Assembly: GCA_963707655.1 (NCBI GenBank)
Contig: OY970172.1
Location: 416,001 to 480,000, forward strand
Length of the DNA stretch: 64,000 nt
Direction: 5' to 3'
DNA from: an uncultured bacterium
GTDB taxonomy: Bacteria; Babelota; Babeliae; Babelales; Vermiphilaceae
The notes beneath the pieces were generated by a model that was not told where the DNA came from, did no database searches, and saw nothing but the letters and a program-made list of their open reading frames with translations. Shown here piece by piece: positions 1 to 21,991 of the stretch (position 1 is the stretch's first letter; each line of letters opens with the position of its first letter). The translations under genes were made by a program, and so were the position numbers.

Positions 1-333
1 AAAATAATCGGCGAGCCAATCATGCGGACTACGCGCGCCACTTTGGCTACCAGAAATACCAATTGTGCTTGTTGAGCCACACGTGTTATCCAAACAATCG
101 GCACCAAAAAGAGAATTCGCGATTGCCTGGTTACGCAACGAGTGGTCGTACTGAGGGATAATGGCCAATGTGCCATATTTACTTTCATCTCGCGCAAGAT
201 GTATCTGGTTGGTCCAGCCGACCATAAAGCGCGGCAGGTCAAGAGATTGCGAGCGCGTGTTGACAAGAGACAAGAGTGTATGCGATATCGTTAAGCAGCT
301 GGCGACAAGAAGAATAATGTTTTTTCTATTCAT
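1..333 (-). CDS. 5' part of a sixth, divergent member of the Cys-rich outer-membrane-like paralogue family (runs off the window)
   Basis: Not in the ORF track. Manual translation from ATG 333 gives MNRKNIILLVASCLTISHTLLSLVNTRSQSLDLPRFMVGWTNQIHL...YGTLAIIPQYDHSL...IANSLFG...ISGSQSGARSPHDWLADYF, matching the family motifs RSQSVDTARELxGW, YGTFAITPEYTQSF, SLFG and DLLADYFG. AAGGA upstream. Confidence 0.85.
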   Translation of the reverse strand, partial: MNRKNIILLVASCLTISHTLLSLVNTRSQSLDLPRFMVGWTNQIHLARDESKYGTLAIIPQYDHSLRNQAIANSLFGADCLDNTCGSTSTIGISGSQSGARSPHDWLADYF

Positions 334-391
334 TTTTCATATTCCTTTCTTTTTTCCAACAGCTTAACACTCGCGTAGTGATGAGCACAAC

Positions 392-424
392 AAAAAAGGC
401 CCGGAAGAATTCCGAGCCCTTTTT
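392..424 (-). terminator. Intrinsic terminator after paralogue 450-2438
   Basis: Minus strand GGCTCGGAA-TTC-TTCCGGGCC followed by T6; T-run also on the plus strand. Confidence 0.8.
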
Positions 425-449
425 GCTGTGTTCTATTACTATGTATTAC

Positions 450-2438
450 TTAGAAAGAGAAACCGCCTTTAAGCCAAATACCCCATTCAGATATATTGGT
501 GCGGATCGCTTTATTGTCGGCGCAAACGAAGCTGCCACAGCCGCTATTTGAATTAATGGTTGAGCATCCTGAAGTATTTGAACACGGCGCTATATTGCAG
601 CATTCTTTATTGCTTGCAAACTCAGCCTTGCCACCAATACCAAGGTAAGGAATGTAACATTCGCAATCTTCCCATGTATAACTTACATGAGTGAATACTT
701 TGTTTGATAATCCCTTAGCCCGCGCGCCAACAAGATCAATATCATTATCTGCCAAGAAGATTGGCTGTATTGATGTCTCTGTTTGGTTCGCCACGGTAGC
801 ACCGGCGGTTACGTTTACTAATGGATTATTGGCGGTAAATGGGGCCGCTGCGTCACCATAAGCGTAAAGCGCCGAATCAATGCCAGTATTGACTGCTGGG
901 AACGGGGTAAATGTTCCTACTGGATAGTTACTGCCGGAGCAGATGGTTGCATTGTTGTTGGTTGCAGATAAAGCTATTGGATCATAAGTATTTACCGGAT
1001 CAAAGCCATACACATACGCATCACCTTTGAGCGCATAAGTCGTGTTGCCTGAGAACAATGAAGTGCTGGTGCATGATTTGAACTTTTCAGCGCTGGTCAT
1101 CCAGAAGTTGTACCCAAGATCCCACGTAAAATTGCAATGGGTATAGTTAAACATAGCAGTCAGGTCAACCTGAATATCTTGTTTCACTTTTACATTCTGC
1201 GCTGCAATATTGGCAACAGGCGTGAATATGTTGTCAAACTGATAGTTTGCCGCGAAGTATCCTCCCGTAGGAACAGTTGCCGGGAATGGTGTCCCTGCTG
1301 GCGCTGGATTTCCTTCCAAGTGATCTACCACGGTGCTTGTCAAATTTTCAGCAAGCATATATTTGCTGTTGTCCCCACGAGCACACAGATCAAACACACG
1401 GAACTGGCATGCTGCAAATAAATGAGTGAGATCAACATCTAAATAAAAGCCGAGGCTTTTTTCATAGTCGCAATCTGTCCAGAATGTGTAGTGAGAGGTA
1501 AATTTGCCACCAAATTCCCAGTGATGCCCATTGCCCACCATTGGTTGAAAGAGCAACCGGTCATTCACTCTGTTGCCCGTTGGCGCTGCAACGAGAAGGC
1601 CCAAGCCAACATGGTAGTCTTCATCTTCCGCAAAGTTCCAGCCCAATGCAAAACGTATGTCTGAAAGGCGCGTTGTATGTGATCCGCTATTACATGATTT
1701 TGAACAATTACCATTGCTGGTACCGGTGATTACCTTGCCGGAAGGAATTTTTGCATTTGCCAATGGTTGGAACGTAACCCCACCGTTTAAGATAGGAACA
1801 TTGCCTTGCAAGTATGATACAAAGCTGGTGTTCAAACTGGTATACGGTACTACAGCAGGACTGAAATAACCTGCCGGATAGTTACCGGCAGCGCTACCGG
1901 GGCTTGCTGCTACTTCATTCATGCGCAATTTCCATTTTGCATACACAACCGGCGCATGAATGCGGAACCACAATCCTTCAAGATAATCATCAAGGCCAAG
2001 GAACAAGTCGAAATCAACCAAAAAGTTTTGAATTTCCGGTTTAACATATACGGTTGATTGGTAATCAAGAGGCAAGCCAAAATAATCAGCTAACAAGTCA
2101 CCTGCCTGGCGATTGGGAGATTGACTGCCCGAAACTCTAAACGAAGCCCCATTGTTATTGTTGCAATTATTATTGATAGTCGTAGCAGCATTGTTAATGG
2201 CACTGCCAAATAATGAACGCGCTATCTGGCGCCCATGAAAAGATTGTGTGTATTCTGGGGTGACGGCGAATGATCCATAAAAGCAGCCGACATCATATAA
2301 GTTAACATGATCGGTCCATCCAGCCAACTCACGTGCGGTATCAACACTTTGCGAACGGATTCTAACATCGGCTGCAGTAGCACATCCCATGACACTCAGC
2401 AGCATGCCAAGACCTATATATGAAAACAGTTGCTTCAT
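450..2438 (-). CDS. Cys-rich secreted protein, putative outer-membrane beta-barrel (paralogue A)
   Basis: ATG 2438 preceded by AAGGAG; N-terminal signal peptide; C-terminus SEWGIWLKGGFSF with alternating hydrophobic residues and terminal Phe. Confidence 0.75.
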   Translation of the reverse strand: MKQLFSYIGLGMLLSVMGCATAADVRIRSQSVDTARELAGWTDHVNLYDVGCFYGSFAVTPEYTQSFHGRQIARSLFGSAINNAATTINNNCNNNNGASFRVSGSQSPNRQAGDLLADYFGLPLDYQSTVYVKPEIQNFLVDFDLFLGLDDYLEGLWFRIHAPVVYAKWKLRMNEVAASPGSAAGNYPAGYFSPAVVPYTSLNTSFVSYLQGNVPILNGGVTFQPLANAKIPSGKVITGTSNGNCSKSCNSGSHTTRLSDIRFALGWNFAEDEDYHVGLGLLVAAPTGNRVNDRLLFQPMVGNGHHWEFGGKFTSHYTFWTDCDYEKSLGFYLDVDLTHLFAACQFRVFDLCARGDNSKYMLAENLTSTVVDHLEGNPAPAGTPFPATVPTGGYFAANYQFDNIFTPVANIAAQNVKVKQDIQVDLTAMFNYTHCNFTWDLGYNFWMTSAEKFKSCTSTSLFSGNTTYALKGDAYVYGFDPVNTYDPIALSATNNNATICSGSNYPVGTFTPFPAVNTGIDSALYAYGDAAAPFTANNPLVNVTAGATVANQTETSIQPIFLADNDIDLVGARAKGLSNKVFTHVSYTWEDCECYIPYLGIGGKAEFASNKECCNIAPCSNTSGCSTINSNSGCGSFVCADNKAIRTNISEWGIWLKGGFSF

Positions 2439-2509
2439 AATAACCACTCCTTAAATGTATTTTGGCGTTCATTAACACAAAAAATGCTAGCATAATCGCG
2501 TGATGCTGC

Positions 2510-2555
2510 GCAATGCATAGCTCATTTTCTCTTACAAAAATAAGCCATGCATTGC
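2510..2555 (-). other. Intergenic RNA hairpin without U-tract (copy 1)
   Basis: Minus strand GCAATGCA-TGGCTTATTTT...AAAATGAGCTA-TGCATTGC, fully paired when G-U is allowed. Confidence 0.65.
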
Positions 2556-2581
2556 ATTTTTTACCTGTTATTCAACAGAGA

Positions 2582-4525
2582 TTAATTAAAAGAAACCCCT
2601 CCTTTGAGCCAAATACCCCATTCGGAGATATTGGTTTTTCTGCAGCCGCTGTCACCACAAGAGCTGCACGAAGAGTTATTTACACCGCAACCGGCACTGT
2701 TTGCACACGGCATAACATCATCACCGCAGCCTTTTTTATTGCTGACAAATTCAGCTTTGCCGCCAATACCCAGGTAAGGCACGTAGCATTCACCGTCTTC
2801 CCATGTGTAGCTTATATGGGTAAATATTTTGTTAGATTGTCCCTGTGCACGTGCACCCGCGTAATCAATATTCTCATTGGCCAGGAACACTGATTGTATT
2901 GAAGTGCTGGTTTGAAGAGAACCTGCAGTTGCGGGGGCTTCGTTATATAATAAAGACAGAAAAGTGGAGAATGCCAATTGCGCATTGTCTATATTTGCGT
3001 TCGCTGTTGGGAAAGGGGTAAAAGTTCCTACCGGATAGTTGGTTCCCGAACAGATAGTGGCCATACTTTCTGTTGCACCAAGAGCAACAAGAGTAATAGG
3101 GGTACCACCATCAAATCCGTAGACCGCCGCATCCCCTTTGAGTGCATAGGTGTGATTGCCGCGGAACAATGGCACATTGTTGCCACATGGGGTAATTCGT
3201 TCACAGCTGGTCATCCAGAAATTGTAACCAAGATCCCAGGCAAAACCGCAGTGTGTATAGTTTAACATTGCCGTAAGATCAACTTGAATATCTTGGCTCA
3301 CTTTTACATTTTGTGCCGCAATGTTTGCAACCGGGGTAAATATGCCATCGAATTGATATGTCGACGCAACCACTGGCGCAGGATCTCCACCAAAAAGATT
3401 TCCCGCCGACGTTGTCAATGATTCGGCAAGCATATATTTACTATTGTCACCGGCGCTGCATAGATCGAACACACGGAACTGTTTTGCTTTCAACAAGGTG
3501 GTTACATCTGCATCAACATAGATGCCCCAGCTCTTGTCGTAATCGCAGCTTCTCCAGAATGTGTAGTGTGAAGTAAACTTCGCACCCAACTCCCAGTGAT
3601 GCCCATTACCAACTATTGGTTGGAAAAGATAGGTGTCATTCACTTTATTACCGGTCGGCGCTGCAACAAGAAGACCTACGCCAATATGGTAATCTTCATC
3701 TTGCCAAAAGTTCCAGCCCAAAGCGGCACGGATATCGGAAAGTTTGGTTGTATGTGCGCCGTTATTGCATGATTTTTCACAACAGCCATTTGCAGCGACA
3801 TCAGTATTTATGGTACCACCACATAATTTACCATATTTCAACGGTGCAAACGTAACGCCACCGTTTAACGTTGGCACATTGCCTTGCAGATATGAAACGA
3901 AGCTGGTATTTAAGTCAGTATTTAAAACTATATCAGGAGCAAAATAACCTCCCGGATAGCTACCGCCAGCAGAAGTTCCCGCATCTGCTATTTCTTCATT
4001 CATGCATAATTTCCATTTTGCATAGACAACCGGTGCATGAATCCGGAACCAGAGTCCACACAGCCAATGATCCAAGCCGACAAAATAATCAAAATCAACC
4101 AAGAAGTTTTGGATTTTTGGTTTTACGTATACGGTCGATTGAAAATCAAGGGGCAAACCAAAATAGTCGGCCAGCAAATCACCGGCCATGCGATTTGTTG
4201 ATCGACTGCCCGAAACTCTAAATGAAGCACCGTTCTCATCATTGTTGCAACTGTCGTTACAATCATTATTTGAAGTGTTTATAATAGCACTGCCAAATAA
4301 TGAACGCGCTATCTGGCGACCATTAAAAGATTGTGTATATTCAGGGGTAATCGCAAATGTTCCATACATGCAATTCATATCAAACAAATTCACGTGATTG
4401 GTCCAGCCCGCCAACTCACGTGCCGTATCAACACTTTGCGAACGGATTCTTATATCGGCTGCAGTAGTGCACCCCATGACACTCAGCAGCACGCCAAGAC
4501 CTATATATGAAAACAGTTGCTTCAT
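2582..4525 (-). CDS. Cys-rich secreted protein, putative outer-membrane beta-barrel (chimeric paralogue A/B)
   Basis: ATG 4525 with AAGGAG; signal peptide nearly identical to paralogue A, body nearly identical to paralogue B; ends WGIWLKGGVSFN. Confidence 0.75.
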   Translation of the reverse strand: MKQLFSYIGLGVLLSVMGCTTAADIRIRSQSVDTARELAGWTNHVNLFDMNCMYGTFAITPEYTQSFNGRQIARSLFGSAIINTSNNDCNDSCNNDENGASFRVSGSRSTNRMAGDLLADYFGLPLDFQSTVYVKPKIQNFLVDFDYFVGLDHWLCGLWFRIHAPVVYAKWKLCMNEEIADAGTSAGGSYPGGYFAPDIVLNTDLNTSFVSYLQGNVPTLNGGVTFAPLKYGKLCGGTINTDVAANGCCEKSCNNGAHTTKLSDIRAALGWNFWQDEDYHIGVGLLVAAPTGNKVNDTYLFQPIVGNGHHWELGAKFTSHYTFWRSCDYDKSWGIYVDADVTTLLKAKQFRVFDLCSAGDNSKYMLAESLTTSAGNLFGGDPAPVVASTYQFDGIFTPVANIAAQNVKVSQDIQVDLTAMLNYTHCGFAWDLGYNFWMTSCERITPCGNNVPLFRGNHTYALKGDAAVYGFDGGTPITLVALGATESMATICSGTNYPVGTFTPFPTANANIDNAQLAFSTFLSLLYNEAPATAGSLQTSTSIQSVFLANENIDYAGARAQGQSNKIFTHISYTWEDGECYVPYLGIGGKAEFVSNKKGCGDDVMPCANSAGCGVNNSSCSSCGDSGCRKTNISEWGIWLKGGVSFN

Positions 4526-4597
4526 AATAACCACTCCTTAAATTTGTTTCGGCATTCATTAACACAAAAAATGCTAACACAACCATTCGACAATACA

Positions 4598-4641
4598 CAA
4601 TGCACCACTTGTCTCCCATTACAGAAACAAGTGGTGCATTG
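4598..4641 (-). other. Intergenic RNA hairpin without U-tract (copy 2)
   Basis: Perfect 15-bp inverted repeat CAATGCACCACTTGT (4598-4612) / ACAAGTGGTGCATTG (4627-4641). Confidence 0.7.
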
Positions 4642-4668
4642 CATTTTTTACCTGTTATTTAACAGAGA

Positions 4669-6612
4669 TTAATTAAAGGAAACCCCTCCTTTGAGCCAGA
4701 TACCCCACTCGGAGATATTGGTTTTTCTGCAGCCGCTGTCACCACAAGAACTGCAGGAAGAGTTATTTAGACTACAGCCTGCACTGTTTGCACACGGCAT
4801 AACATCGTCATCGCCGCAGCCTTTTTTATTGTTGGCAAATTCAGCTTTGCCGCCCACGCCAAAGTATGGCACGTAACATTCACGGTCTTCCCATGTGTAG
4901 CTTATATGGGTAAATATTTTGTTAGACAGACCCTGTGCGCGCGCACCCGCGTAATCGATATTGTCATTGGCCAAGAATACTGATTGTATTGAAGTGCTGG
5001 TTTGAACAGCGCCGCCGGGTACGGTGAATAACTCTGGCCCGGTAGGTGAAAAGTCCCCCAAAGCCGCGTTGTCTATATTTGTATTCGCTGTTGGGAAAGG
5101 GGTAAAAGTTCCTACCGGATAGTTGGTGCCTGAACAAATAGTGGCCATGCTTTCAGTTGCACCAAGAGCAACCGGAACAGTGACCCCAAATCCATAGACC
5201 GCTGCATCACCTTTAAGTGCATAAACATGATTGCCTTGGAACAATGGCACATTATTACCGCATGGGGTAATTCTTTCACAGCTGGTCATCCAGAAATTGT
5301 AACCGAAATCCCAAGCAAAGCCGCAGTTGGTGTAATTTAACATCGCCGTAAGATCAACTTGAATATCTTGACTCACTTTTACCTGTTGTGCCGCAATGTT
5401 TGCAACCGGGGTAAATATGCCATCGAATTGATATGTTGAGGCTACGGGGCCCGCACCTGTTGCACCATAAAGGTCCACTGATGGAGTTTTCAATGATTCG
5501 GCAAGCATATATTTGCTGTTGTCGCCGGCGCTGCATAGATCAAACACGCGGAACTGTTTTGCTTTCAACAAAGTGGTTACATCTGCATCAACATAGATGC
5601 CCCAGCTCTTGTCGTAATCGCAGCTTCTCCAGAATGTGTAGTGTGAAGTAAACTTCGCACCCAACTCCCAGTGATGACCGTTACCAACGAATGGTTGGAA
5701 AAGATAGGTGTCATTCACTTTATTGCCGGTTGGCGCTGCAACGAGAAGACCCACGCCAATATGGTAATCTTCATCTTGCCAAAAGTTCCAGCCCAAGGCG
5801 GCACGAATATCAGAAAGTTTGGTTGTATGTGCGCCGTTATTGCACGATTTTTCACAGCAGCCATTTGAAGCGACATCAGTATTTATGGTACCGCCACACA
5901 ATTTGCCATATTTTAATGGCTCAAACGTAACGCCACCGTTTAACGTTGGCACATTGCCTTGCAGATATGAAACGAAGCTAGTGTTTAAGTCCGTATTTGC
6001 CACTGCAGCAGGAGCAAAATAACCGGCCGGATAGCTACCACCAAGAGTAGTGCCCGCGTCTGCTATTTCTTCATTCAAGCATAATTTCCATTTTGCATAG
6101 ACAACCGGCGCATGAATCCGGAACCAGAGTCCGCACAGCCATTGATCAAGGCCAATAAAGAAATCAAAATCAACCAAGAAGTTTTGGATTTTTGGTTTTA
6201 CGTATACGGTTGATTGGTAATCAAGCGGCAAACCAAAATAGTCGGCCAGCAAATCACCGGCTTGACGATTGAGGTTTTGACTACCTGATATTCTAAATGA
6301 AGCACCGTTCTTATCATTGTTGCAGTTATCGTTACAATCATTATTTGAAGTGTTGATAATGGCGCTGCCAAATAATGAACGCGCTATCTGGCGACCATTA
6401 AAAGATTGTGTATATTCAGGGGTAATCGCAAATGTTCCATACATGCAATTCATTTCAAATAAATTCACCTGATTGCTCCAGCCCGCCAACTCACGTGCCG
6501 TATCAACACTTTGCGAGCGTATTCTTATATCGGTGGTTGTGGCTGTGCCAACAAACCCGACTGTGCTGCAAAGAGCAATAAGACTCAGATATTTTTTTAG
6601 CGCTTGTTTCAT
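4669..6612 (-). CDS. Cys-rich secreted protein, putative outer-membrane beta-barrel (paralogue B)
   Basis: 647-aa ORF, AAGGAG RBS, signal peptide, family motifs, ends WGIWLKGGVSFN. Confidence 0.75.
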   Translation of the reverse strand: MKQALKKYLSLIALCSTVGFVGTATTTDIRIRSQSVDTARELAGWSNQVNLFEMNCMYGTFAITPEYTQSFNGRQIARSLFGSAIINTSNNDCNDNCNNDKNGASFRISGSQNLNRQAGDLLADYFGLPLDYQSTVYVKPKIQNFLVDFDFFIGLDQWLCGLWFRIHAPVVYAKWKLCLNEEIADAGTTLGGSYPAGYFAPAAVANTDLNTSFVSYLQGNVPTLNGGVTFEPLKYGKLCGGTINTDVASNGCCEKSCNNGAHTTKLSDIRAALGWNFWQDEDYHIGVGLLVAAPTGNKVNDTYLFQPFVGNGHHWELGAKFTSHYTFWRSCDYDKSWGIYVDADVTTLLKAKQFRVFDLCSAGDNSKYMLAESLKTPSVDLYGATGAGPVASTYQFDGIFTPVANIAAQQVKVSQDIQVDLTAMLNYTNCGFAWDFGYNFWMTSCERITPCGNNVPLFQGNHVYALKGDAAVYGFGVTVPVALGATESMATICSGTNYPVGTFTPFPTANTNIDNAALGDFSPTGPELFTVPGGAVQTSTSIQSVFLANDNIDYAGARAQGLSNKIFTHISYTWEDRECYVPYFGVGGKAEFANNKKGCGDDDVMPCANSAGCSLNNSSCSSCGDSGCRKTNISEWGIWLKGGVSFN

Positions 6613-6786
6613 AATAGCTACTCCTTGTTATCGTTTTTTATTATGCATTATTATATATGCTTTCATTCTCCATCATGTGCGATTTAATTATTTTTTTATC
6701 AGTAAATCTCCTTTTATTATCGGCACAGCTCATCACTTTGATTGATATAAAAAGCATCCTACCATAGCAACAATTAAAGAAACAAC

Positions 6787-6816
6787 AAAAAAAAGACCCG
6801 GATATTTTTCCGGGTC
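6787..6816 (-). terminator. Intrinsic terminator after paralogue C
   Basis: Minus strand GACCCGGA-AAAATA-TCCGGGTC then T8. Confidence 0.8.
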
Positions 6817-6861
6817 CTCTACATTGGTTCTGTCATGCAATTATCGATGCGCTCATTATTA

Positions 6862-8886
6862 TCAATTGAATGAGCAACCGCCTTTGAGCCAAATACCCCA
6901 CTCGGAGATATTGCTTCTTCTACAGCCATTATCACCGCACGATGAAAAACATGAGAAATTATTTCCCGCATTGGTAGCAACCGTGCACCCTGAACTATTG
7001 GCACATGGGGATGCGCCGCATTCTTTCTTATGGAGTGCAAACTCGGCCTTGCCACCTGCACCAAGATAAGGAGTGTAGCAGCCACAATTTTCCCATGTAT
7101 AACTTACATGAGTAAATATTTTGTTGGAAATACCGTGACCGCGACACCCTTGAACATCAACATTGGGCTCTCCCAGAAACAGTGATTGAATTGAGGTATT
7201 GGTTTGGTTGGTAGCAGGAACTCCGCCGGTGGTTACATTAAACAATGCATCATAAGGAGGTACGGCACCCGTTGCATTGCCATACGCATATTGAGGCAAA
7301 TCAATATTCGCATTTACCGATGTTGCTGCCGTTACTGTAGATCCAAGCGGTATATTGGTACCGGAGCAAATAGTTGCCATACTTTCTGTTGCCCCTAAAG
7401 CTATCGGATCATATAAGCCGCCGGTTGCATTGCCATTGTCAAAACCATAGACAGATGCATCACCTTTGAGCGCATACGTGGCGTTACCTTGTAGCAATGC
7501 AGTCGTGTTGCCGCATTGATTTATTCTTTCGCAACCGGTTACCCAGAAATTGTAACCGATATCCCAGGCAAGACTACAATGGGTATAATTAAGCATCGCA
7601 GTAAAATCAATCTGAATATCTTGGCTCACTTTTATATTTTGTGCCGTGATGTTTGCTGCCGGTACAAACACATTACTGAATTGATACACTGAAGGGGTAG
7701 GTGTTTCGCCCACGGGAGCAATATAGGGAGCGGCTCCCGTTGTTGATATGCCATTGCCTGAAAGATCATCTGTTGCAGGAATGTTCATTACTTGCGCAAG
7801 CATATATTTGCTATTGTCACCGGCGCCACACAAATCAAACACACGGAATTGGCGCGTTGCGAACAAGAGGGTTGCATCGGCATCAAAATAAAACCCAACA
7901 CTTCTGTTTAAATCGCAGTTGCGCCATAATGTGTAATGCGAAGTAAACTTACCACCCAGCTCCCAGTGATGGCCATTACCAACGAATGGCTGAAAAAGCA
8001 GCGTATCATTTACTCGAGAACCTGTTGGCGCCGCAGCAAGACCTCCCAAGCCAATATGATAATCTTCATCTTGCCAAAAGTTCCAGCCAAAAGAGAAACG
8101 TATATCAGAAAGCTGAATGGTGTGCGCCTCGCTGTTACATGATATTGAGCCATCAACAGTATTCGTAGTGCGACCACAAATTTTACCATTTTGTAACGGT
8201 TGAAAAGTAACGCCACCATTTAATGTAGGAACGTTGCCTTGTAAATATGAGACAAAGCTGCTGTTTAGATGAGCAACCGGCACTGCAGCAGGAGCAAAAT
8301 AACCGGCCGGATAATAAACAGTGCCCGGTTGTGCTTGCGCTTCATCCATGCGCAATTTCCACTTCGCATACACAACTGGTGCATGGATTCTGAACCAAAA
8401 GCCGCAGAGCCATTGATCAAGGCCAATAAAAAAATCAAAATCAACCAAGAAGTTTTGAATTTCCGGTTTTACGTATACGGTTGATTGGTAATCAAGCGGC
8501 AAGCCAAAATAGTCAGCCAATAAATCCCCTGCTTGACGGTCAACCGCCTGGCTACCCGACACGCGGAATGCAGCACCGTTGTCATTGCAGCCGCTGTTAC
8601 CATTAGTGCCAGTAGTAGTTATTCCGCTAGTAAGTGCGTTGCCAAACAATACGCGCGCTATGTGCCGACCATTAAAAGATTGCGTATATTCCGGTGTTAT
8701 TGCAAATGATCCATGAATGCCGTCAACATTATATAGATTGATATGATTGATCCAGCCAGATAATTCGCGTGCTGTATCAACACTCTGCGAGCGAATCCGC
8801 ACATCATTGGCCACGCTGATGGACGTGAATCCAAGTACGCTAAAAAGAGCGCTACGATATATACACTCTTTTAACATTTGTTTCAT
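6862..8886 (-). CDS. Cys-rich secreted protein, putative outer-membrane beta-barrel (paralogue C)
   Basis: 674-aa ORF, GAGGA RBS, signal peptide, ends WGIWLKGGCSFN. Confidence 0.75.
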   Translation of the reverse strand: MKQMLKECIYRSALFSVLGFTSISVANDVRIRSQSVDTARELSGWINHINLYNVDGIHGSFAITPEYTQSFNGRHIARVLFGNALTSGITTTGTNGNSGCNDNGAAFRVSGSQAVDRQAGDLLADYFGLPLDYQSTVYVKPEIQNFLVDFDFFIGLDQWLCGFWFRIHAPVVYAKWKLRMDEAQAQPGTVYYPAGYFAPAAVPVAHLNSSFVSYLQGNVPTLNGGVTFQPLQNGKICGRTTNTVDGSISCNSEAHTIQLSDIRFSFGWNFWQDEDYHIGLGGLAAAPTGSRVNDTLLFQPFVGNGHHWELGGKFTSHYTLWRNCDLNRSVGFYFDADATLLFATRQFRVFDLCGAGDNSKYMLAQVMNIPATDDLSGNGISTTGAAPYIAPVGETPTPSVYQFSNVFVPAANITAQNIKVSQDIQIDFTAMLNYTHCSLAWDIGYNFWVTGCERINQCGNTTALLQGNATYALKGDASVYGFDNGNATGGLYDPIALGATESMATICSGTNIPLGSTVTAATSVNANIDLPQYAYGNATGAVPPYDALFNVTTGGVPATNQTNTSIQSLFLGEPNVDVQGCRGHGISNKIFTHVSYTWENCGCYTPYLGAGGKAEFALHKKECGASPCANSSGCTVATNAGNNFSCFSSCGDNGCRRSNISEWGIWLKGGCSFN

Positions 8887-8924
8887 GATAATTGTTCCTC
8901 ATTGAATGAATAGTATTCGTTAAT

Positions 8925-8953
8925 AAAAAAGGCCCGGGAAAATTCCCGGGCCC
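8925..8953 (-). terminator. Intrinsic terminator after paralogue D
   Basis: GGCCCGGGAA / TTCCCGGGCC perfect stem with T6 on the minus strand. Confidence 0.85.
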
Positions 8954-9000
8954 TTAGTACTAGTTTTTGTTTGTGCAACAGGTTGATGCACTAACAAATA

Positions 9001-10998
9001 TTAATTAAAGGAGACGCCACCTTTAAGCCAAATACCCCACTCAGAGATATTTGTTCTTCTGCAATTGTTGTCATTGCATGAAGATGAGCATGAAGATGTG
9101 CTAACGATGTTGTTTGCAACAGTACAGCCTGAGCTGTTTGTGCATGAAGCACCGGTAACATTGCAGTTCTTCTTGTCGCTTGCAAATTCAGCTTTACCAC
9201 CCACGCCAAAGTATGGCACGTAGCAGTCATGGTCTTCCCAAGTGTAGCTCAAGTGAGTAAATACTTTGTTAGACATGCCTTTAGCTGTTGCGCTTGCTAC
9301 ATCAATATTAGCATTGCTTAACAATACTGATTGAATTGATGTATGTGTTTGATCAGCTGGAGCAGCAGCGCCAGAAGAGTTATACAATGGGGTAACACCA
9401 GCAGTATTATTTGCAAATTGTGCATTGTCAACACCAGCGTTGATCGATGTTGTTGGGGTTATCGCAGGTGTAACTCCTACTAGAATGTTTGTACCTGAAC
9501 AGATGGTAGCAGCACTTTCTGTTGCACCTAAAGCTATTGGGCCGGTAGGCGCTGCAGCGGTGAATCCGTATACAGATGCGTCACCTTTGAGTGCATAGGT
9601 TGTGTTGCCTGAGAACAATGCAGAAGTATTGCCACATTGTTTGATCTTTTCACAGCTGGTCATCCAGAAGTTGTAACCAAGATCCCATGCAAAGCCACAG
9701 TGTGTATAGTTAAACATAGCGCTCAAGTCAACTTGAACGTTTTGGCTAACTTTTACATTTTGTGTTGCAAGGTTAGCAATCGGGGTAAACACGCCATCAA
9801 ATTGGTAGGTTGAAGCAGTAAGACCAGGAGCTGGAGTTATTGCTGTAGCACCAAAGAGACCTACAGAAGGAGTTAACAATGATTCAGCTAACATATATTT
9901 GCTGTTGTCACCAGCGCCGCACAAGTCAAATGAGCGGAATTGGCGAGTTGCAAACAAGTGTGTTACATCGATATCAAGGTAGAAACCAAAGCTTCTATCG
10001 TAATCGCAGCTTCTCCAGAAAGTATAGTGGGAAGTAAACTTACCACCTAATTCCCAGTGATGACCGTTACCAACGAATGGTTGGAAAAGGAATGTATCAT
10101 TTACACGGTTACCGGTTGGCGCAGCGGCAAGAATGCCTAAGCCAACATGGTAATCTTCATCTTGCCAGAAGTTCCAGCCCAATGCAAAGCGGATGTCTGA
10201 AAGACGGGTTGTGTGTGCACCGCTGTTGCATGAGTTTGAACAGCAACCATTGGTTGTTGTTGAGGTGCTTACATTGCCAGAACCACAGAGTTTATCATAT
10301 TTTAATGGTGCGAAAGTAACGCCACCATTTAAGGTAGGAACATTACCTTGCAAGTATGATACAAAGCTGGTGTTCAAGTCAGCAACTGGTACTGCAGCAG
10401 GGGCGAAATACCCAGCTGGGTAAGCAGCAGCAGCGGTTACTGATTGCACTTCATCCATACGCAATTTCCATTTTGCATAAACAACTGGCGCGTGGATTCT
10501 GAACCAGAGACCACAAAGCCATTCATCAAGGCCAATGAAGAAATCAAAGTCAACCAAGAAGTTTTGAATTTCTGGTCTAACAGTTACGGTTGATTGGTAG
10601 TCAGTCGGCAAACCAAAATAGTCAGCTAACAAGTCGCCAGCTACACGGCCGGTTGCTGTGCTACCAGACACTCTGAATGAAGCAGAATTGTCATTGCAGC
10701 CGCTGTTGCAGTTACCGTTGGTAGTTGTTGATGAATTGTTGGTAATTGCATTACCGAACAATGAACGCGCTATTTGGCGACCATGGAAAGATTGTGTGTA
10801 CTCAGGTGTTATAGCGAATGATCCGTAGATACCGCCCATGTCATATAAATTAACATGATTGGTCCAGCCAGATAATTCACGTGCTGTGTCAACGCTTTGC
10901 GAACGGATTCTTACGTCATTGGCAACTGTTGTGCCAGTGAATCCGATTACGCTAAAAAGAGCGCATAGGCTTAAATATCCTTTTAGCATTTGTTTCAT
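9001..10998 (-). CDS. Cys-rich secreted protein, putative outer-membrane beta-barrel (paralogue D, first in array)
   Basis: ATG 10998 with AAGGAG; signal peptide; ends WGIWLKGGVSFN. Confidence 0.75.
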   Translation of the reverse strand: MKQMLKGYLSLCALFSVIGFTGTTVANDVRIRSQSVDTARELSGWTNHVNLYDMGGIYGSFAITPEYTQSFHGRQIARSLFGNAITNNSSTTTNGNCNSGCNDNSASFRVSGSTATGRVAGDLLADYFGLPTDYQSTVTVRPEIQNFLVDFDFFIGLDEWLCGLWFRIHAPVVYAKWKLRMDEVQSVTAAAAYPAGYFAPAAVPVADLNTSFVSYLQGNVPTLNGGVTFAPLKYDKLCGSGNVSTSTTTNGCCSNSCNSGAHTTRLSDIRFALGWNFWQDEDYHVGLGILAAAPTGNRVNDTFLFQPFVGNGHHWELGGKFTSHYTFWRSCDYDRSFGFYLDIDVTHLFATRQFRSFDLCGAGDNSKYMLAESLLTPSVGLFGATAITPAPGLTASTYQFDGVFTPIANLATQNVKVSQNVQVDLSAMFNYTHCGFAWDLGYNFWMTSCEKIKQCGNTSALFSGNTTYALKGDASVYGFTAAAPTGPIALGATESAATICSGTNILVGVTPAITPTTSINAGVDNAQFANNTAGVTPLYNSSGAAAPADQTHTSIQSVLLSNANIDVASATAKGMSNKVFTHLSYTWEDHDCYVPYFGVGGKAEFASDKKNCNVTGASCTNSSGCTVANNIVSTSSCSSSCNDNNCRRTNISEWGIWLKGGVSFN

Positions 10999-11434: not shown

Positions 11435-11602
11435 CAAGTTGTTCTTACCGCTCAATATGCCGATGTAGCATTTACTTTTTATCGACTAATCTGCGCAGTG
11501 TAATTATTATAATATGATGATATTTTTATTGTAAAGTAAAATTACAAAGATGATTGATGTAGCCGTTGTTAACAAGATTTTTTTATTATAAAAGAGGGAT
11601 CC

Positions 11603-12415
11603 ATGCTCTTTCTGTACCTCTATATTTTTGCACAGATTTTCCTGGAGAGTTTTCCGATTAGTTCCTCGGGACATAGTGCATTGTTGCAACAATGGTATTC
11701 TTTTTTATATCCATCATTTCAAAACCCGCTTTTATCATCTCTATGCACGGGCACCACAATACATCAAGATGTTTTTGATGCGCTGCTGCATGGCCCTACT
11801 CTGCTTATTTTATTCTTTTTTTTCTTTCATCGTTGGTTTTTTCTGTTACGGCATCCGGTGCGATGTCGCTTCATTATAGCAAAATTGATTCTCTACATTT
11901 TTATATCAACAAGCATTGCACTCTTCTTTTATTTTGTTGTGCAGATTCAACACTACCGCCTGCCTTTGGGCATCGGTTTTTTTATAACCGCCTGCGCAGC
12001 ATTGTCTACGCGATGGACCAAAACAGGAACCGGCTCACTCACCCTCTCTTCTTCTTTTATTATAGGCATGGCACAGGCAGTTGCGTTATTGCCGGGCATT
12101 TCTCGACTGGGAACCACCTATGCGGTATCGCGATGGCTCGGCATATCAAGCAGGCGCTCATTTGAAATATCTTTCTTAATGCAAGCTCCTTTAATAGCCG
12201 CCGCGTGTGGAAAAAGCATACTAACCCTGAGCTCCGCCCATCTTCTTGGCAAACTATTGAATTTACCGCTCCTCTTGATTATTATGATCTCGACGGTGGC
12301 AGCATGGTATGGATTACGAGCAAGCTTTTATAGCGCGAATCATGGTTATTGGTGGTACTTTGCTCTGTATATGTTGGCCCCGTTGATCTCTTGGCTGATA
12401 ATTGTATCGCTATAA
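11603..12415 (+). CDS. uppP: Undecaprenyl-diphosphate phosphatase (BacA/UppP)
   Basis: Motifs ESFPISSSGH and PGISRLGTT; multiple hydrophobic helices. Confidence 0.9.
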   Translation: MLFLYLYIFAQIFLESFPISSSGHSALLQQWYSFLYPSFQNPLLSSLCTGTTIHQDVFDALLHGPTLLILFFFFFHRWFFLLRHPVRCRFIIAKLILYIFISTSIALFFYFVVQIQHYRLPLGIGFFITACAALSTRWTKTGTGSLTLSSSFIIGMAQAVALLPGISRLGTTYAVSRWLGISSRRSFEISFLMQAPLIAAACGKSILTLSSAHLLGKLLNLPLLLIIMISTVAAWYGLRASFYSANHGYWWYFALYMLAPLISWLIIVSL

Positions 12416-12437
12416 TGAAACTAAAAAAGGGGGAACA

Positions 12438-14764
12438 ATGCTATACAAAAAAAGAATGGCTGCATCATTCGCGCACCATTATTATCATTATTTCACATTA
12501 ATTCTGATTGTTCTTTTTCTTTTTTTATTACCGGATCTTTACTCACCTACCACGCCTACGATAGCAGCAGCTGGTTTTATTCTACTGCCGCGCAGCACCA
12601 TGCGCGCCATAATATTTTTGGTGCGGCCGGCGCTGAGTGCGCCGCTTTGTTGTGGTATCTTTTTGGCGGGGCTGCCGTTATTATCCCCGGCATGATCATT
12701 TTTTATCTCCGCTGCGCCATACAGAGAATACCGCTCTCATCTGAATATGATCGCTGTGGTGGCTGGTTGCTTTTGCTTATCGGCGCCTGCTCTTTATCAT
12801 CACTCTATCAATATGATCTTATTGCGCATATCACTCCCGGCGGATTATTGGGCCACTATACCGCATCATTGTTAGTGCGCTGCTTTGATCTGCTTGGTGC
12901 TTTTATTTTTTCATATGTGTTGATGAGTATAGCGCTGGTGCTACTCTGCCATTTTATTCTATTTTATCTCTGGCACGCGCTGTTATGGTGCGTTCATCTG
13001 ATATCTTCCAAAGAGCGTTTTTGGACGCCGCTCTATTCTGCCATTTCTTGTTACGCATCTTTGTTTGCGCGCGCGATGCATAAAGCTTCTTCATATATAT
13101 ATACTACTCTGAGCGGTAGCGTAATTAAAGATAACTATTTTCAGCTTACCGAGACTGACTTTGAAGAGATTTTTGTCGCCGATGCACATGAAGAAGATTT
13201 TTGGCTGCAGTTTATGAATACGCCGGCAAAGCCGGCCACTAGTGATCATAAAGAAACCGTGCGCCATACTGCCAATATCAGTTTTCAGCCCGCACAGACA
13301 GAGATAAAAAAAGATGCCGAACAGATAGTTGAGCAAACTCAAACGCTGCATAAAGCAATAGAACCGAACTCGCGCCCCGAGGTCTCCTATGCTTTACCCA
13401 CCATTGATATTTTTATTAATAAAAAAGATGAACAAGACGACCCTCAAATGGTAAAAGATCTTGAAAAGCGTGCCTTAATTTTACAAGAAAAATTAGAACG
13501 CTTTGGTGTATATGGATCAGTCACCGCTATTAAACGGGGCCCGGTGGTTACTTTGTTTGAATATCAACCCGCTATTGATTCAAAGATTAGCAAAATTATT
13601 GCGCTTGAAGATGATTTGGCACTTGCATTGCAAGCATTGAGTATTCGCATTATTGCCCCTATTCCGGGCAAATCGGTAGTTGGTTTTGAAGTTGCCAACA
13701 GCGTCGGCAAAAAAGTGAGCTTTGCCAAAATTATTACCTCTGCCGCGTATCAAAAATTTTCTGGTGCACTGCCATTATTGCTCGGTGAAGATACAATTGG
13801 GGCCGATGTGGTTGTTGACCTTGCTCGTATGCCTCATTTATTAATTGCCGGCTCTACCGGATCGGGCAAATCGGTAGCACTCAATGGCATGCTTACCTCT
13901 TTGCTGTGCGGCATGGCCCCTGATGAGTTGCGCCTTATACTGATCGACCCCAAACGTCTGGAATTTGCTCCTTATGCTGATATTGCGCATCTTATTTTTC
14001 CTATTATTACCGATCCTAAAAAAGCAGCTCCGGTTTTGCGCTTTGTGATTAAAGAAATGGAAGAGCGTTATGAGCGCATGGCAAAACTCAATGCCCGCAA
14101 TATTTTTGATTATCATGCCGCAGTAGGAAGCGTAAGCGCCATGCCGTTTATGGTAATAGTCATTGATGAACTTGCTGATTTGATGATGACCGCCGGAAAA
14201 GAAATTGAATTTCTTATTACCCGCATCACTCAAATGGCACGCGCCGCCGGCATTCACATGATGGTGGCTACGCAGCGCCCTTCCGTTGATGTAATTACCG
14301 GCTTGATTAAAGTTAATTTCCCCAGCCGCATCTCTTTTAGGGTGACTTCAAAAATCGATTCGCGCACTATTCTAGATAGCGGCGGCGCTGACAAATTATT
14401 GGGCCGCGGCGATATGCTCTTTTTAGATTCAACATCGGCAATGATCAGACGCGTGCATGGCGCTTTTGTTTCTGACCAGGAAATAGCAAAAGTTGTTGGC
14501 CATATTCGCGCACAACAAGCGGTATCGTATCTTGAGCTTCCTTCAGAATCAAACCAAGACGCGCATTCTTTGGAAGATGCTGATGATCAACTGTATCAGG
14601 AAGTGCTTGGTTTTTTAAAAACGGTTGATGAAATTTCAATTTCTCTCCTTCAGCGCAAATTCAGAATCGGCTTCAATCGCTCTGCCCGCATTATCGATAT
14701 GCTTGAAGCGCAGGGATTAATTTTACCCGGCCATGGAGGCAAAACAAGAAAAGTAATTCATTGA
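12438..14764 (+). CDS. ftsK: DNA translocase FtsK (apparent frameshift near the T-run at ~12520-12526)
   Basis: ATG 12438 with GGGGG RBS; N-terminal TM region continues in the second frame (SLLTYHAYD...NIFGAAGA...LFG); PHLLIAGSTGSGKS, IDELADLMM, ARAAGIH, ATQRPS; gamma domain SISLLQRKFRIGFNRSARI. Confidence 0.93.
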
Positions 14765-14888: not shown

Positions 14889-17800
14889 ATGAATAATGTA
14901 ATGCGTGTTGTTTTAATGAGTATTGTACTGCTTTCTGTGAGCATCGCTGCGCCGGATCAGATTGCGTCGCAAGGCACACAAGAAAATCAGATTATCCTAC
15001 CGGCCGGCACGGTGCAGGCTCTTGCACAATTATCTGAAATTATTAAATCTGACCCAACAAGAACAATGCCACGCTCACTTGAATTGTTGAATCAGAGTGC
15101 TGTTTTGCAAGATGCAGCAACGCTGAACAGCTGCTTGCAAGAGGTCCGTGTAAGTATTGATGACATGCTTGACAATCAGCACTATGATGCTGCACTTAAA
15201 ATAACACTCATACGCATAAAAAATATCATCATCGCGCATGAGCTAGCGCTGAACATACAAGAAATAGATGAAACCGACCTAGATGAAGAAAGCACTCGTG
15301 TGCGCCCATACGGCACACCGGCGCTCTTTTATGGTCCGGTAGTTATTGATGACCCGACAGGAAATCCGGCATTATTGGTTGACGGACCAACGAGCTTGAG
15401 CGAACTGGCCGCAGGTGTTATTACGGCGCAAACCATTAATGTTGATATAGCTTCATTTACCGATCTTACTGTTGATAATTTAACCGTGGTAGATTCATTG
15501 ACTTTAGAATATACAACGCCAGGAGATTTTCTTTATGTAAGTCCTAATGGACAAATTGTTTCACGAAACGTAATTCCCGGCTCCGGTATTCAATCGGTCA
15601 ACAGCGGCGTTAATATTTTTGTTAACAACACATCACCCACGGCACCAATAGTGAATGTTGCTGGCACTACGCCTCTTGCGGTACAAATTGGCAATGCCAC
15701 AAATGGTGGATTGCAATCATTATCATTTGGCACAAGTGGTCAAGTATTAACATCTAATGGCGCGGGAAGTTCTCCATCATGGCAAGCAGCCCCTGCTTCA
15801 AGTATTACCATTACCGGCGATACGGGAGGCGCATTAACCGGAGACAGCTTCACCTTTACCGGCGGCACAACCGGATTAAAATTTAATGGCGGCGGCACAA
15901 CAGAAACCTTAGGTGGTACATTAGCTGTTGCCAATGGCGGTACCGGTGCGACGAGCTTTGGCACAATCGATGGTACCGTATATTATAACGGAACCAATCT
16001 TACGACCACCGCTACGGGAGCCACCGGACAAGTTCTTACTTCCAACGGTACTGGCGCTGCGCCGACATATCAATCAATCAGCGCTATCGGCGCCGTCACT
16101 TCAGTAAACGCCGGGACAGGCATTGACATTACCGGCACGGCCACTGCGCCGATCGTAAATCTTATAACACCGGTGAGTATCGCCAATGGCGGTACCGGTG
16201 CTACGAGCCTTGCTGCCAACGGTATTATTATTTCAAACGCGGGGGGCACTGCGCTCACTTCGCAACAATTAACCAACGGACAACTCTTGATTGGCAATAG
16301 CGGAAATGCTCCATCTGCTGCTCAATTGACTGCCGGAACCGGTATAGTTATTAGCAACGGGGCAGGAAGCATATCAATTAGTGCAAATGGCGGCGGCACA
16401 GTGCCAAATACATTTGTCACCCCTAATGGGACTGCAACACCGGCCGGCGGTGTCATCAATATTAACGGCTCCCCATCGCAAGGTATTACTACCTCTGGCG
16501 CCGGTAATACGGTAACTATCAACGCAACCAATGCAAGCGCTACTGCTAAGGGTGTCGCTTCATTTAGTGCAACAAATTTTACGGTAACCGGCGGCAATGT
16601 GGCCTCAAACAATTTCTCTATTAATCCGGGCACCGGCTTGACCGGTGGCGGCTCATTGACTTTGGGCGGATCAACCACTATCTCATTATCTACGCCGGTT
16701 TCTGTTACCAATGGTGGTACCGGATTATCAACACTCACCGCACATAACGTGCTTCTTGGTGAAGGCACTGCAAATGTTGGCTTTGCGACACCAACGACTA
16801 CTACGGGCATTCCATTAGTATCCACCGGCCCGACTAGTGACCCTGCATTTGGTACTGCATCGGTACAAGGCGGCGGCACCGGATCAACAAGTTTTACCGC
16901 CAATGCACCGGTTATTGCCGGCGCTACTGCAACAAGCGCTCTTACTACTGCAACAACCGGCATAGCTAATAGTGGCTATGTATTTACCAGCACCGGTTCA
17001 TCATCCGCGCCCACATGGCAACCGATCAGTGCAGCCGGCGCAGTAACTTCGGTCAAGGCCGGCAACAATATATCAGTTACCGCCGGAACATCTCCTATCG
17101 TAAGCGTTGCCGGAACAACAACCAATGCGGTGCAAATCGGTAATGCTACAGGATCGTTAACATCACTTGCCGTTGGCACTAATGGCCAGGTATTGCTGGG
17201 CGCTTCCGGGGCTGCGCCTGCGTTCGCAAATCTTACCTCCACTAGTGGCACCCTTGCGTTCACCACCGGGGCAAATAGTCTAAGCATTGACGTTAATGCA
17301 CCACTTCCTATTGCCTATGGGGGCACCAATGCAACGTCAATGACCAATACGGATGGCGTTGTCTATTTTGATGGAACACTATTGAATACCACCACCGTGG
17401 GGACCTCAGGACAAGTATTAACATCACAAGGCGCAGGAATGCCACCAACATTTCAATCAATGCCGGCATCAAGTTCAGCCGATGTTCCCAATACATTGGT
17501 ATTGCGCGATGGCAGCGGTGATTTTGCCACCAACATGATTACTATTGACGGCACACCCTCAGCATCAACCGATGTCGCTACCGTTGCGTATGTGCTGGCA
17601 CATGAAAGTACCGGCCTGGTTGTGCATTCTCCAGCCGTGCTCGTGGGCACCGTCGATGAACCCATTGCCGGACCGGCAACTATTGATGGTTCACCGGTCG
17701 TTTCAGGAGAGCGCATATTGCTGGTTGATCAGACCACCTCAACGCAAAACGGATTATGGCTCGCCGCAGTAGGAGCAGGAAGTCCGTGGAGCAGACCAGA

Positions 17801-20800
17801 TGATTTTTCTAACGGCACTGAAGCAGGTACCGCCTATGTATTGATAACCAACGGGCAAACTTATGCCGGCTCCAGCTGGGTCTGCTCAACACCGACGGCT
17901 ATTATTGGCTCAAGTCCCATCTTCTTCAATGAATTTTCGCTCCCCAGCCAAATAAATGGCGCCAATGTTGGCTCCGGTCCCGGGCAAGTTTTTCAAGGTA
18001 AATCAGGGACTCACTCTCAATTTCAGAACTATTATCGGTGATCCTTATATAGCCGTCGACCACGAGCGCAAGTGAGTTAGCATTACCAGCGATGCAACAA
18101 GTAGCAATACCGCATCAACCATTGTTGCGCGTGATGCAAGCGGCAATTTTTCTGCCGGCACCATCAGCGCAACCAATCTGGTTGATACCGGCGTTAACCA
18201 GTACGCGGTGGTTGTTGGCGGCGGCACCAATCCGTTGACAGGCATTGCCCCTTCTACCGCAGGAAGCGTACTTGTATCAGGCGGTTCTGCCGCTAACCCT
18301 GCATTTGTTGTACCAAGTGTGAACGGCAACGGCCTGAACGTAACGCATACTGCTTCAACCTTGGCATATGGATTGGTTACGCCAGTCATTGTTGCCAATG
18401 GCGGCACCGGCTCAGAATTGTTTAATACTAACGGGATCGTTCTTTCAGGCGCAAGCAGCACAACACCATTAGTTGCACAACAGCTAACGGCGGGAGAACT
18501 GTTGATAGGTACAGCCGCAGGAACGGCACCCTCAGCAGCTCAATTAACCGCAGGGACCGGTATAGCTATTACCAATGGCGCAGGCAGTATATCGATTAGT
18601 GCAAGTGGCGCGCTTCCCGGCACATTTGTAACGCCCAATGGCAACGCAACACCTGCTAGCGGCATCATTAATATTAACGGCTCACCATCACAAGGTATTA
18701 CTACCTCCGGCGCCGGTAATACCATCACCATTAATGCAAACAATGCAAGCACCACCGCTAAAGGTGTGGCATCATTTAATGCAACCAACTTTAGCACCGC
18801 CGCTGGCGTAGTATCATCAAATCCTATTGCCATAAATACGGGTGCCGGCTTGAGCGTAAGCAGTGGCAGCGTAAATTTAGGCGGCACCACCACGATTAGC
18901 CTTACAACAGTTCCTGTTGCCAATGGTGGTACCGGATTATCAACACTCACCGCACACAACGTGCTTCTTGGTGAAGGCACTGCAAATGTAGGCTTTGCTG
19001 CGCCAGGAACTGCCGGACAAATACTCGTTTCAAATGGAGCAGCTGCTGATCCGTCATTCAAATCATTGAGCACTGCTGGCGCAGTTACTCAGATTAATGG
19101 CGACACCGGGTCAGCAATGCCAGCTTCGGGGATCATTACCTTCAATGCAAATTCAAACGCAGGATCAACGGTGGAGTTTAGCGCCTCAGGATCAACGGTT
19201 GATTTATTGGTTACCAATCCAACGACACAAAACACATTCATAGGTCTTATTGCAGGAAATACTAGTTCACCATCGGCGACCGGCAACACCGGCATAGGCT
19301 ATGCTGCCTTGAACAGCAACAAGGGCTCTTCTAACACAGCCTTAGGATTTGAGGCGCTGCTTGACAACACCAGCGGCTCCGGTAATACCGCCATAGGATA
19401 CATTGCTTTGCCAAGCAATAGCACGGGCTCTTCCAATACCGCCTATAGGATACGCTGCCTTGAACAGAAACACCACCGGCTCCTCTAATGTTGCTATCGG
19501 TAACAATGCACTCCAAAATAGTAACGGCAATAATAATGCCGCTTTTGGCTACCAGGCTTTGACTGCGAATACTACCGGATCAAACAATACCGCTGTTGGT
19601 ACCAGTGCTCTGGCAGCAAATACTACCGGCACTCCCAACACCGCTGTTGGTTATCAGGCATTGCTGGTCAACAACACCGGTATAAATAACGTTGCTGTCG
19701 GCTACAATGCCCTTGTTGCAAACACAACCGGTTCTACCAATGTCGCAGTCGGCAACAATGCTTTGGGCACCAATGTCACCACTTCAAATAGTGTTGCTAT
19801 TGGTAATAGCGCCCTGGCTGCTAACACCGCAGCAAACAATACCGCTGTTGGTACCAGTGCTCTGGCAGCAAATACTACCGGCACTCCCAACACCGCTGTT
19901 GGTTATCAAGCATTAAAGCTGAACACCACTGGTGCGAATAATGTTGCGGTTGGCTATGAAGCATTAGCAGTCAATACAACTGGTTCTGCCAACGTCGCGA
20001 TGGGCAACAATGCCTTGGGTGCCAATGTCACCGCTTCAAATAGTGTTGCTATCGGTAACAGTGCTCTAGCTGCTAACACCGCGGCAAACAATACTGCTGT
20101 TGGGTATGACGCCCTGGCTGCCAATAAAACCGGATCTCCCAACACCGCTATTGGTTATAATGCCCTTACTGCTAATACCACCGGCATTAATAACGTTGCT
20201 TTGGGTTATGCCACCCTTGATGCAAATACAACAGGTTCTGCCAACGTGGCGGTAGGTAATAATGCCTTGGGTACCAATGTCACTGCGTCAAATAGTGTTG
20301 CTATTGGTAACAGTGCCCTGGCCGCTAACACCGCATCAGACAATACCGCTGTCGGTACCAGTTCCTTGGCCGCCAATACTACCGGCTCTGGTAATACTGC
20401 CGTTGGAGCTCAAGCATTAAGCCTGAATCAAGGCGGAGCAAGTAATGTCGCCATGGGTTATGAAGCATCACAAAGCAATGTAACCGGATCGAATAACGTC
20501 GCCATAGGATACCAGGCAGCACAACTCGGTACCGGTGGAGGAAACAACGTCGCTATAGGCTTTTTAGCTTTAAATAGTGGTGGCGCTTCATTCGCCAATA
20601 CAGCCATAGGATTTGAGGCATTAGCCGCTAACACCACTGGCACATTTAATGTTGCGATTGGATTTGATGCATTAGAGGCTAATTCAAGAGGTTCTAATAA
20701 TACTGCTGTTGGCTATTCTGCTTTAACGAGTAATGGGGTGTCTAATAATACCGCTGTCGGATATAATGCTCTTGCTAGCAACAGCACCGGCAGCCCCAAC

Positions 20801-21748: not shown

Positions 21749-21766
21749 CATTTTTTAAGCGCGGTA

Positions 21767-21803
21767 AGGGGCCAGTTTGATATCAAGCTGGCCCCTCTTT
21801 TTT
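21767..21803 (+). terminator. Intrinsic terminator after giant gene 1
   Basis: AGGGGCCAGTTTGA-TA-TCAAGCTGGCCCCT followed by CTTTTTT. Confidence 0.85.
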
Positions 21804-21991
21804 ATGGTCACAACCCCCTGTGTTATTAATGCCACAATCTAGCCAGTGTACTTGGTTTTTAAAATAATTGATGAAATTTTAATCTATTTTTCCTACCACA
21901 TAAATATTATTTCTCACTTGCCATTGCGAAAAAAATATATAAGTATTAATCCAAAAGTAATGATGAAAAATATCCCCAAAAAAGGAAAAGT

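Follow-up and report, generated by a model that had tools for sequence, protein, structure and literature searches.

What are the cysteine-rich proteins encoded one after another at the start of this stretch, and what do they do for the bacterium that makes them? The stretch analysed here (the window; 64,000 nucleotides, positions 416001-480000 of contig G000:C1) belongs to a 1.09-Mb single-contig genome, 89% complete, from the phylum Dependentiae (Babelota), and the tiny bacterium is likely a parasite. Positions 1 to 10998 of the window carry a tandem array of six genes. We conclude that they are tandem duplicates from a family of predicted plugged β-barrels that spans the phylum, and that, with a probability of roughly 55%, this family serves as the chief structural and host-facing protein of the Dependentiae surface. 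The array consists of the following genes.

9001..10998, minus strand: g1, the first array gene, 665 residues, 21 cysteines (4 in predicted periplasmic turns)
6862..8886, minus strand: g2, 674 residues, 21 cysteines (5 predicted periplasmic)
4669..6612, minus strand: g3, 647 residues, 23 cysteines (5 predicted periplasmic)
2582..4525, minus strand: g4, the modelled protein, 647 residues, 23 cysteines (5 predicted periplasmic)
450..2438, minus strand: g5, 662 residues, 19 cysteines
1..333, minus strand: 5′ part of g6, a divergent paralogue whose complete gene is G000:C1:414492-416333, 613 residues, 12 cysteines

A first-pass annotation made from the letters alone had described an array of at least six Cys-rich paralogues, and this description holds. 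The genes g1 to g5 are full open reading frames (ORFs), each beginning with ATG behind an AGGAG/GAGG-type ribosome-binding site, and the reading frame of g6 continues beyond the window edge as a complete gene. The motifs RSQSxD, LADYF, GNGHHWE, ALKGDA and WGIWLKGGxSF(N) are common to g1-g5, and GNGHHWE and ALKGDA are shared with g6; of the quoted Cys-rich blocks, CNDSCNN is found in one array gene and CCEKSC and CSSCGDSGC in two. Identity is 63-87% within g1-g5, with g3 and g4 at 87%, and 41-43% to g6, far beyond chance. Each protein has 19-23 cysteines in g1-g5 (2.9-3.6%) and 12 in g6, compared to a median Cys content of 1.1% for ORFs of at least 300 residues (n = 402). Four dispersed paralogues of 483-629 residues are encoded elsewhere in the same genome.

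A Pfam scan, which covered the window except for two ORFs outside the array at 49064 and 51500, assigned no family to the six array proteins; 40 divergent members gave just eight scattered single-member matches (E 0.017-0.24), and profile searches of the PDB returned 0 matches and 1 chance match. Mean-field coevolution analysis of 422 family sequences (effective number 306; top 150 pairs, ladders judged by eye) revealed antiparallel ladders for 12 strands, with contacts between strands 1 and 12 that close the barrel (G55-F646, T56-S645 and E62-G637). Residues 31-37 coevolve with several strands (S31-S263, D33-K590, T34-T418 and E37-H163), which points to a plug. The AlphaFold2 model of g4, built from 150 sequences, has 12 long strands that match the coevolution positions (predicted local distance difference test score, pLDDT, 87.4; predicted template modelling score, pTM, 0.88), and its low-confidence parts, residues 88-94 and 608-625, are two of the quoted Cys-rich blocks. 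Three elements of g4 are central to the predicted fold.

4388..4453, minus strand: residues 25-46 (RSQSxD...GW), the predicted lumen plug, with coevolution contacts, a helix at 34-38 and structural alignment beginning at residue 34-40
3650..3658, minus strand: P290-T291-G292, the PTG motif, which ends strand 5 and sits at the 5-6 loop base
2588..2632, minus strand: strand 12 (ISEWGIWLKGGVSF), a β-signal-like terminus through which the barrel closes on strand 1

The top Foldseek match to the model is FapF (E 5e-7), and a wide structural search returned Pput2725 of COG4313 (4rl8; Z 21.7, root mean square deviation (rmsd) 2.9, 260/267 aligned), FapF (Z 21.5, rmsd 2.6, 257/276 aligned) and autotransporter barrels (Z ~17). 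Model, coevolution and both structural searches agree on an outer-membrane β-barrel, as the first-pass annotation had supposed, and the family is almost certainly one of plugged 12-stranded barrels distributed across the phylum, as far as modelling can tell. A 10-stranded barrel of the chlamydial MOMP type does not fit the 12 strands found in model and coevolution alike; MOMP is absent from the listed fold matches, which come from a library that may not contain it. A β-propeller, the label used in a 2015 supplement, is contradicted by the single closed 12-strand barrel, the top structural matches being outer-membrane barrels.

Conservation in the family peaks in the plug and the PTG loop; PTG is present in 365 of 422 sequences (PxG in 410) and in 26 of 40 from the divergent set. 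In FapF the strand 5-6 loop carries this motif at its base on the extracellular side, and Pput2725 has it too (PMC5557850). The occurrence of PTG at the same place in the array proteins suggests remote homology and sets their orientation, with the long loops outside and the short turns in the periplasm. Like Pput2725 (PDB 4RL8; SphA/TcpY family, PF13557), the array proteins are predicted to form a 12-stranded barrel with the N-terminus inside the lumen and PTG at strand 5, but they are 11% identical to it, carry ~350 extra extracellular-loop residues and ~20 cysteines, and are multicopy and phylum-wide. The PF13557 hidden Markov model matched none of the six array proteins, none of the 40 divergent members and nothing in the genome at E 10, so that they are probably remote homologues of COG4313 and not members. 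Atlas features point weakly toward COG4313/PF13557; a stepping-stone search from a distant 433-residue barrel gathered 109 relatives, none with a Pfam match, and yielded no sequence bridge to COG4313. With FapF (PDB 5O65, 5O67) they share the 12-stranded helix-plugged barrel and the placement of PTG at the 5-6 loop base; they differ in having no N-terminal coiled coil (the plug, at ~residue 25, is where the mature chain begins), one PTG instead of two, and bacA and ftsK as neighbours.

The chief rival to our reading is that the array proteins are plug-gated, COG4313-like uptake channels (as SphA and TcpY) for host lipids or hydrophobic nutrients, in which paralogues are tuned to substrates, the cap is a binding funnel and the cysteines are only structural. 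Pput2725 is the best structural match, and the most invariant part of the family is the PTG region, which PMC4493636 describes as a proposed lateral gate in COG4313. TM6 genomes lack lipid and other biosynthesis, as reported in PMC4776705 / PMC6561590, and PF13557 occurs on 21-24% of the members of the nearest named Atlas clusters. The array proteins themselves, however, do not match PF13557 and are double the size of Pput2725, and the lateral diffusion described in PMC4493636 serves to bypass lipopolysaccharide (LPS), which Babeliales mostly lack. Neither catabolic nor transport genes were seen beside the array. We consider uptake rather unlikely, while ranking it first among the alternatives. 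Less probable again are FapF-like or autotransporter-like pores that secrete many signal-peptide-bearing effectors, an idea favoured by the structural scores above and by the signal peptides on 44% of Chromulinavorax coding sequences (PMC4776705 / PMC6561590). The chain has neither an N-terminal coiled coil nor a passenger, no conserved cargo gene lies next to the array, and the large extracellular loops may cover the pore, so we regard this function as unlikely.

The family reaches well beyond the array. Named homologues of the array proteins come from Candidatus Dependentiae, and an array-protein query matched 151 of 151 phylum genomes and 18 of 18 sampled families, usually in multiple copies; 1,946 representatives of 50% identity clusters match at E ≤0.001. 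A single-motif search was less informative: among the best 80 of 264 matches, many titles were uninformative or from other phyla. The family had been called uncharacterised, which is true of its Pfam and PDB sequence matches but overlooks a description in Babela massiliensis from 2015. There, expanded family 6 (Pagnier et al. 2015, PMC4378268) comprises BAB00329-331, 487, 957 and 960, and the paper speaks of "7 large secreted proteins" whose N-terminal domain is rich in Cys, and the fold is called a "beta-barrel" in its text and a β-propeller in the supplement label. The Babela proteins are, like the array family, tandem, secreted and Cys-rich, and the motifs RSQ...ARELVGW, ADYFGLP, PTG and FEP..GNG.HWELG in the printed rows of the paper indicate the same family, as judged by motifs and not scored by alignment; they differ, in those rows, by a long N-terminal Cys-rich extension that the window proteins lack. 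We found no treatment of the family beyond PMC4378268 in a literature search outside which most subscription papers lie, and a term search of PMC12172432 came up empty.

The cysteines fall into two sets, one extracellular and one periplasmic. Counts per region were made on 414 of the 422 rows, leaving out eight incomplete ones. Per 100 residues there are 0.43 cysteines in the strands, 4.0 in the extracellular loops and 6.7 in the periplasmic turns and plug linker, against a background, by a rough sorting rule, of 1.38 for signal-peptide-like proteins (n = 214) and 1.16 for cytoplasmic ones (n = 312). The two sets in g4 are located as follows.

2786..4372, minus strand: predicted periplasmic cysteines, one per turn or linker: C52 (4370-4372), C156 (4058-4060), C327 (3545-3547), C426 (3248-3250) and C580 (2786-2788)
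2642..3205, minus strand: C441 (3203-3205) and C628 (2642-2644), a co-varying extracellular pair

In the outer set, three pairs of columns co-vary strongly (441-628, 75-631 and 231-352; phi 0.68-0.75). For 441-628, both cysteines are present in 305 sequences, neither in 40 and one in 29; both are lost in g5 and g6, while 75 and 631 are both missing in g4. Such co-variation makes intramolecular disulfides likely. The periplasmic turns usually hold one cysteine each, at a loosely fixed position and with no exclusive partner, and columns 426 and 580 pair loosely (both in 89 sequences, one in 102). Periplasmic cysteines number 4-5 in each of the six array genes, and one or more occur in 328 of 414 family members. 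The inner and outer sets are decoupled, since genome G093 has 0-2 inside and up to 26 outside, and G121 has 5 inside and 5-8 outside. The periplasmic cysteines of older paralogues track their genome (rho 0.76, 16 genomes) whereas those of flanking genes do not (rho 0.19, 18 loci); on the tree, periplasmic Cys is a clade trait, so few independent events underlie the value of 0.76.

Our proposed mechanism builds on these two sets. Sec would export each barrel protein by its signal peptide (signal peptides were judged by eye), and BamA would insert the barrel through its C-terminal strand; two Omp85 genes are present in the genome. The RSQSxD...GW segment would then fold back into the lumen and shut the pore, and ~300-350 loop residues would make an extracellular cap, partly stapled by intramolecular disulfides. 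In the clade of this genome, the single periplasmic-rim cysteines would be available for bonds with adjacent barrels or with proteins of the periplasm, and these rim bonds would stiffen a membrane that is probably without LPS. LpxC was not found in this genome, and PMC4776705 and PMC6561590 describe Babeliales as lacking most LPS genes, with a Gram-negative, LPS-poor envelope in which an outer membrane is visible. The functional analogy is with chlamydial MOMP, in which 5 of 8 cysteines are periplasmic and expected to bond intermolecularly (PMC13254160). In each case an intracellular bacterium has a closed barrel that bears periplasmic cysteines and, on the outside, a folded cap; MOMP has 10 strands and 8 cysteines, 7 of them highly conserved, whereas the array family has 12 predicted strands and cysteines gained and lost by clade. 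The Cys-rich blocks quoted in the first-pass annotation are extracellular in the model, and the MOMP-like set consists of the single periplasmic-turn cysteines instead, so it is on the latter that the cross-linking idea rests. By this analogy, the clade may have independently evolved a Chlamydia-style envelope in which the plugged barrels and small barrels bond to each other via periplasmic-rim cysteines, or to small Cys-rich proteins, and give the infectious particle an armour that stands in for LPS, with oxidation not relying on DsbB. We put this forward tentatively, as a possibility with the odds against it.

Other barrel-like or Cys-rich proteins are encoded elsewhere in the genome. Three related proteins of ~200 residues (L136:551-1162, L137:612-1205 and L138:514-1179; at 747551, 321612 and 1029314 of G000:C1), none of them matched by Pfam, resemble outer-membrane barrels of 8 strands, a topology judged by eye. 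Relatives turned up in 7 of 18 genomes, and 14 of 15 sequences of this separate family have at least 2 cysteines in predicted periplasmic turns, as counted by eye. Three mutually related barrel-like proteins of 424-434 residues are encoded at G000:C1:516408-517709, 927762-929036 and 986988-988292, one of which is related to the main family (hhalign 95.6%), at a distance; the first of the three has 109 relatives, with Pfam matching none. We also observed an OmcA-like candidate between cmk and lon, a secreted-looking ORF of 156 residues with 14 cysteines (L128:2601-3071; G000:C1:11600-12070, minus strand). Its codon score ranks second of 787, homologues occur in two genomes besides this one, in one of them at the same place, and this query found it in only 3 of 151 genomes, a result against the cross-linked coat.

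Several observations weigh against our reading. The closest folds are channels, for uptake or secretion, and the conservation of the plug and PTG loop above all else suits a transport role. The AlphaFold2 model and the coevolution analysis draw on largely overlapping alignments. The word "major" in the first-pass annotation finds weak support in codon adaptation, which declines along the array: g1 ranks 15th of 787, the family's highest, with g2-g5 at 138-322 and g6 at 680, on a score built on just 19 short reference genes; by this weak proxy g1 is likely the most expressed array gene. The total number of extracellular cysteines shows no bias toward even values (195 even, 219 odd). Of 414 members, 86 lack periplasmic cysteines, and in some array genes the total is just 0-3, so the family's core function is not cross-linking. 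A prediction that genomes whose main-family proteins are poor in periplasmic cysteines would lack turn cysteines in their small barrels failed, as 3 of 4 genes have them in the two such genomes with a match. Lastly, DsbB scored above cut-off in 0 of 151 phylum genomes, and this 89%-complete genome has no DSBA or Thioredoxin_4 match. Chlamydiae have DsbA/DsbB. VKOR is present in 44 of 151 phylum genomes, this one included, and a link between VKOR and cysteine load was tried and rejected: across 9 genomes with and 9 without it, periplasmic cysteines were not higher with VKOR (1.8 vs 2.6). The redox switch of the first-pass annotation is thus not borne out, DsbB being undetected across the 151 genomes and the cysteine load not following VKOR. 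The genome encodes a stand-alone VKOR at L121:1477-1887 (match G000:C1:325861-326226) and a signal-peptide-bearing WCGPC thioredoxin at C1:945107-945670.

How the array arose can be read in part from g4, which resembles g5 (86-100%) in the spacer upstream of it and over the first 25 codons, and g3 from there on. This g5-like start, with leader and signal peptide, on a g3-like body indicates that unequal crossing-over took place within the conserved plug block; the array would expand by such events and its copies diverge under purifying selection. Pairwise ratios of nonsynonymous to synonymous substitution rates (dN/dS) are 0.13-0.26 for whole genes, 0.03-0.07 for strands and 0.16-0.22 for all loops. 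For single loops in computable pairs they are 0.05-0.29, counts that, being pairwise, leave room for selection at single sites. The loops thus vary, as the first-pass annotation had noted, but they appear from the gene comparisons to be under relaxed constraint within purifying selection, with no diversifying selection seen in pairwise dN/dS. Tandem copies, variable loops and the chimeric g4 would suit a cassette system for antigenic variation or host-range switching. This is improbable given those loop ratios: all six genes are intact, five of them in the window with ribosome-binding sites, synonymous sites are close to saturation in every pair but g3/g4, and 9 of 10 gene pairs share no identical run of at least 40 nucleotides.

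A strong hairpin is present in each spacer of the array.

8928..8955, minus strand: terminator-like hairpin and U-tract, 3′ of g1
6791..6820, minus strand: terminator-like hairpin and U-tract, 3′ of g2
4599..4644, minus strand: ~20-bp hairpin in the g3/g4 spacer
2514..2555, minus strand: ~18-bp hairpin in the g4/g5 spacer
386..430, minus strand: terminator-like hairpin in the g5/g6 spacer

The hairpins at 2514-2555 and 4599-4644 are counterparts in which stem pairing is kept while many bases have changed, and no U-tract follows directly; they are possible mRNA stabilisers or processing sites. A promoter scan gave fewer sites (22) than expected (26.9), and its best one, at 11506-11535, is therefore only a candidate.

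On the other side of the array lie its conserved neighbours and a cluster of giant fibre genes.

11603..14764, plus strand: bacA (PF02673) and ftsK, divergent from the array, its conserved context
14889..42500, plus strand: fibre/S74 cluster, outside the array system, between ftsK and the Mur ligase

We compared the arrays of 18 same-family genomes, picked from the top matches on long contigs. In 16 of these 18 loci the array is divergent from (bacA)-ftsK-Mur ligase-rsmH, and in all 16 the Mur ligase follows ftsK directly or after one short gene, with fibres in 0 of 16. Because ftsK and the Mur ligase are near-adjacent in these relatives, the 27.8-kb fibre block is best read as a later insertion. 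Several ORFs of the fibre cluster abut in different frames and may have been split by assembly errors. The fibre genes begin two genes from the array, with bacA and ftsK intervening, and from this proximity the first-pass annotation had proposed that the array proteins anchor or export the fibres, a role that is very improbable and, as a dedicated pairing, largely refuted by the occurrence of Peptidase_S74 in 43 of 151 phylum genomes against 151 of 151 for the barrel family, by the fibre-free syntenic loci, and by the distances of 19 kb to several hundred kb between the array and the S74 matches listed in those genomes. Elsewhere on the contig, two apparent housekeeping genes, presumably recJ-like and lon-like, are broken into frames (L128:143-1880 and 3539-6001), which suggests indel errors in the assembly, and at G000:C1:402704-406122 a series of short secreted-looking ORFs (133-197 residues), several beginning MFKK/AMD, lies downstream of a dnaK-like gene.

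This multicopy barrel family, present in every sampled genome, is probably what the protist hosts of Dependentiae encounter at the bacterial surface. The only description we found in print, from 2015, carries two conflicting folds, which are here corrected to a predicted plugged barrel of the COG4313/FapF type with a large cap. With this anatomy, and with the cysteines sorted into an outer and an inner group, the cross-linking idea becomes simply testable. If that idea is true, the chlamydial kind of disulfide envelope would have arisen a second time, by convergence, and the survival of bacteria between hosts despite a degenerate, LPS-poor envelope would have an explanation.

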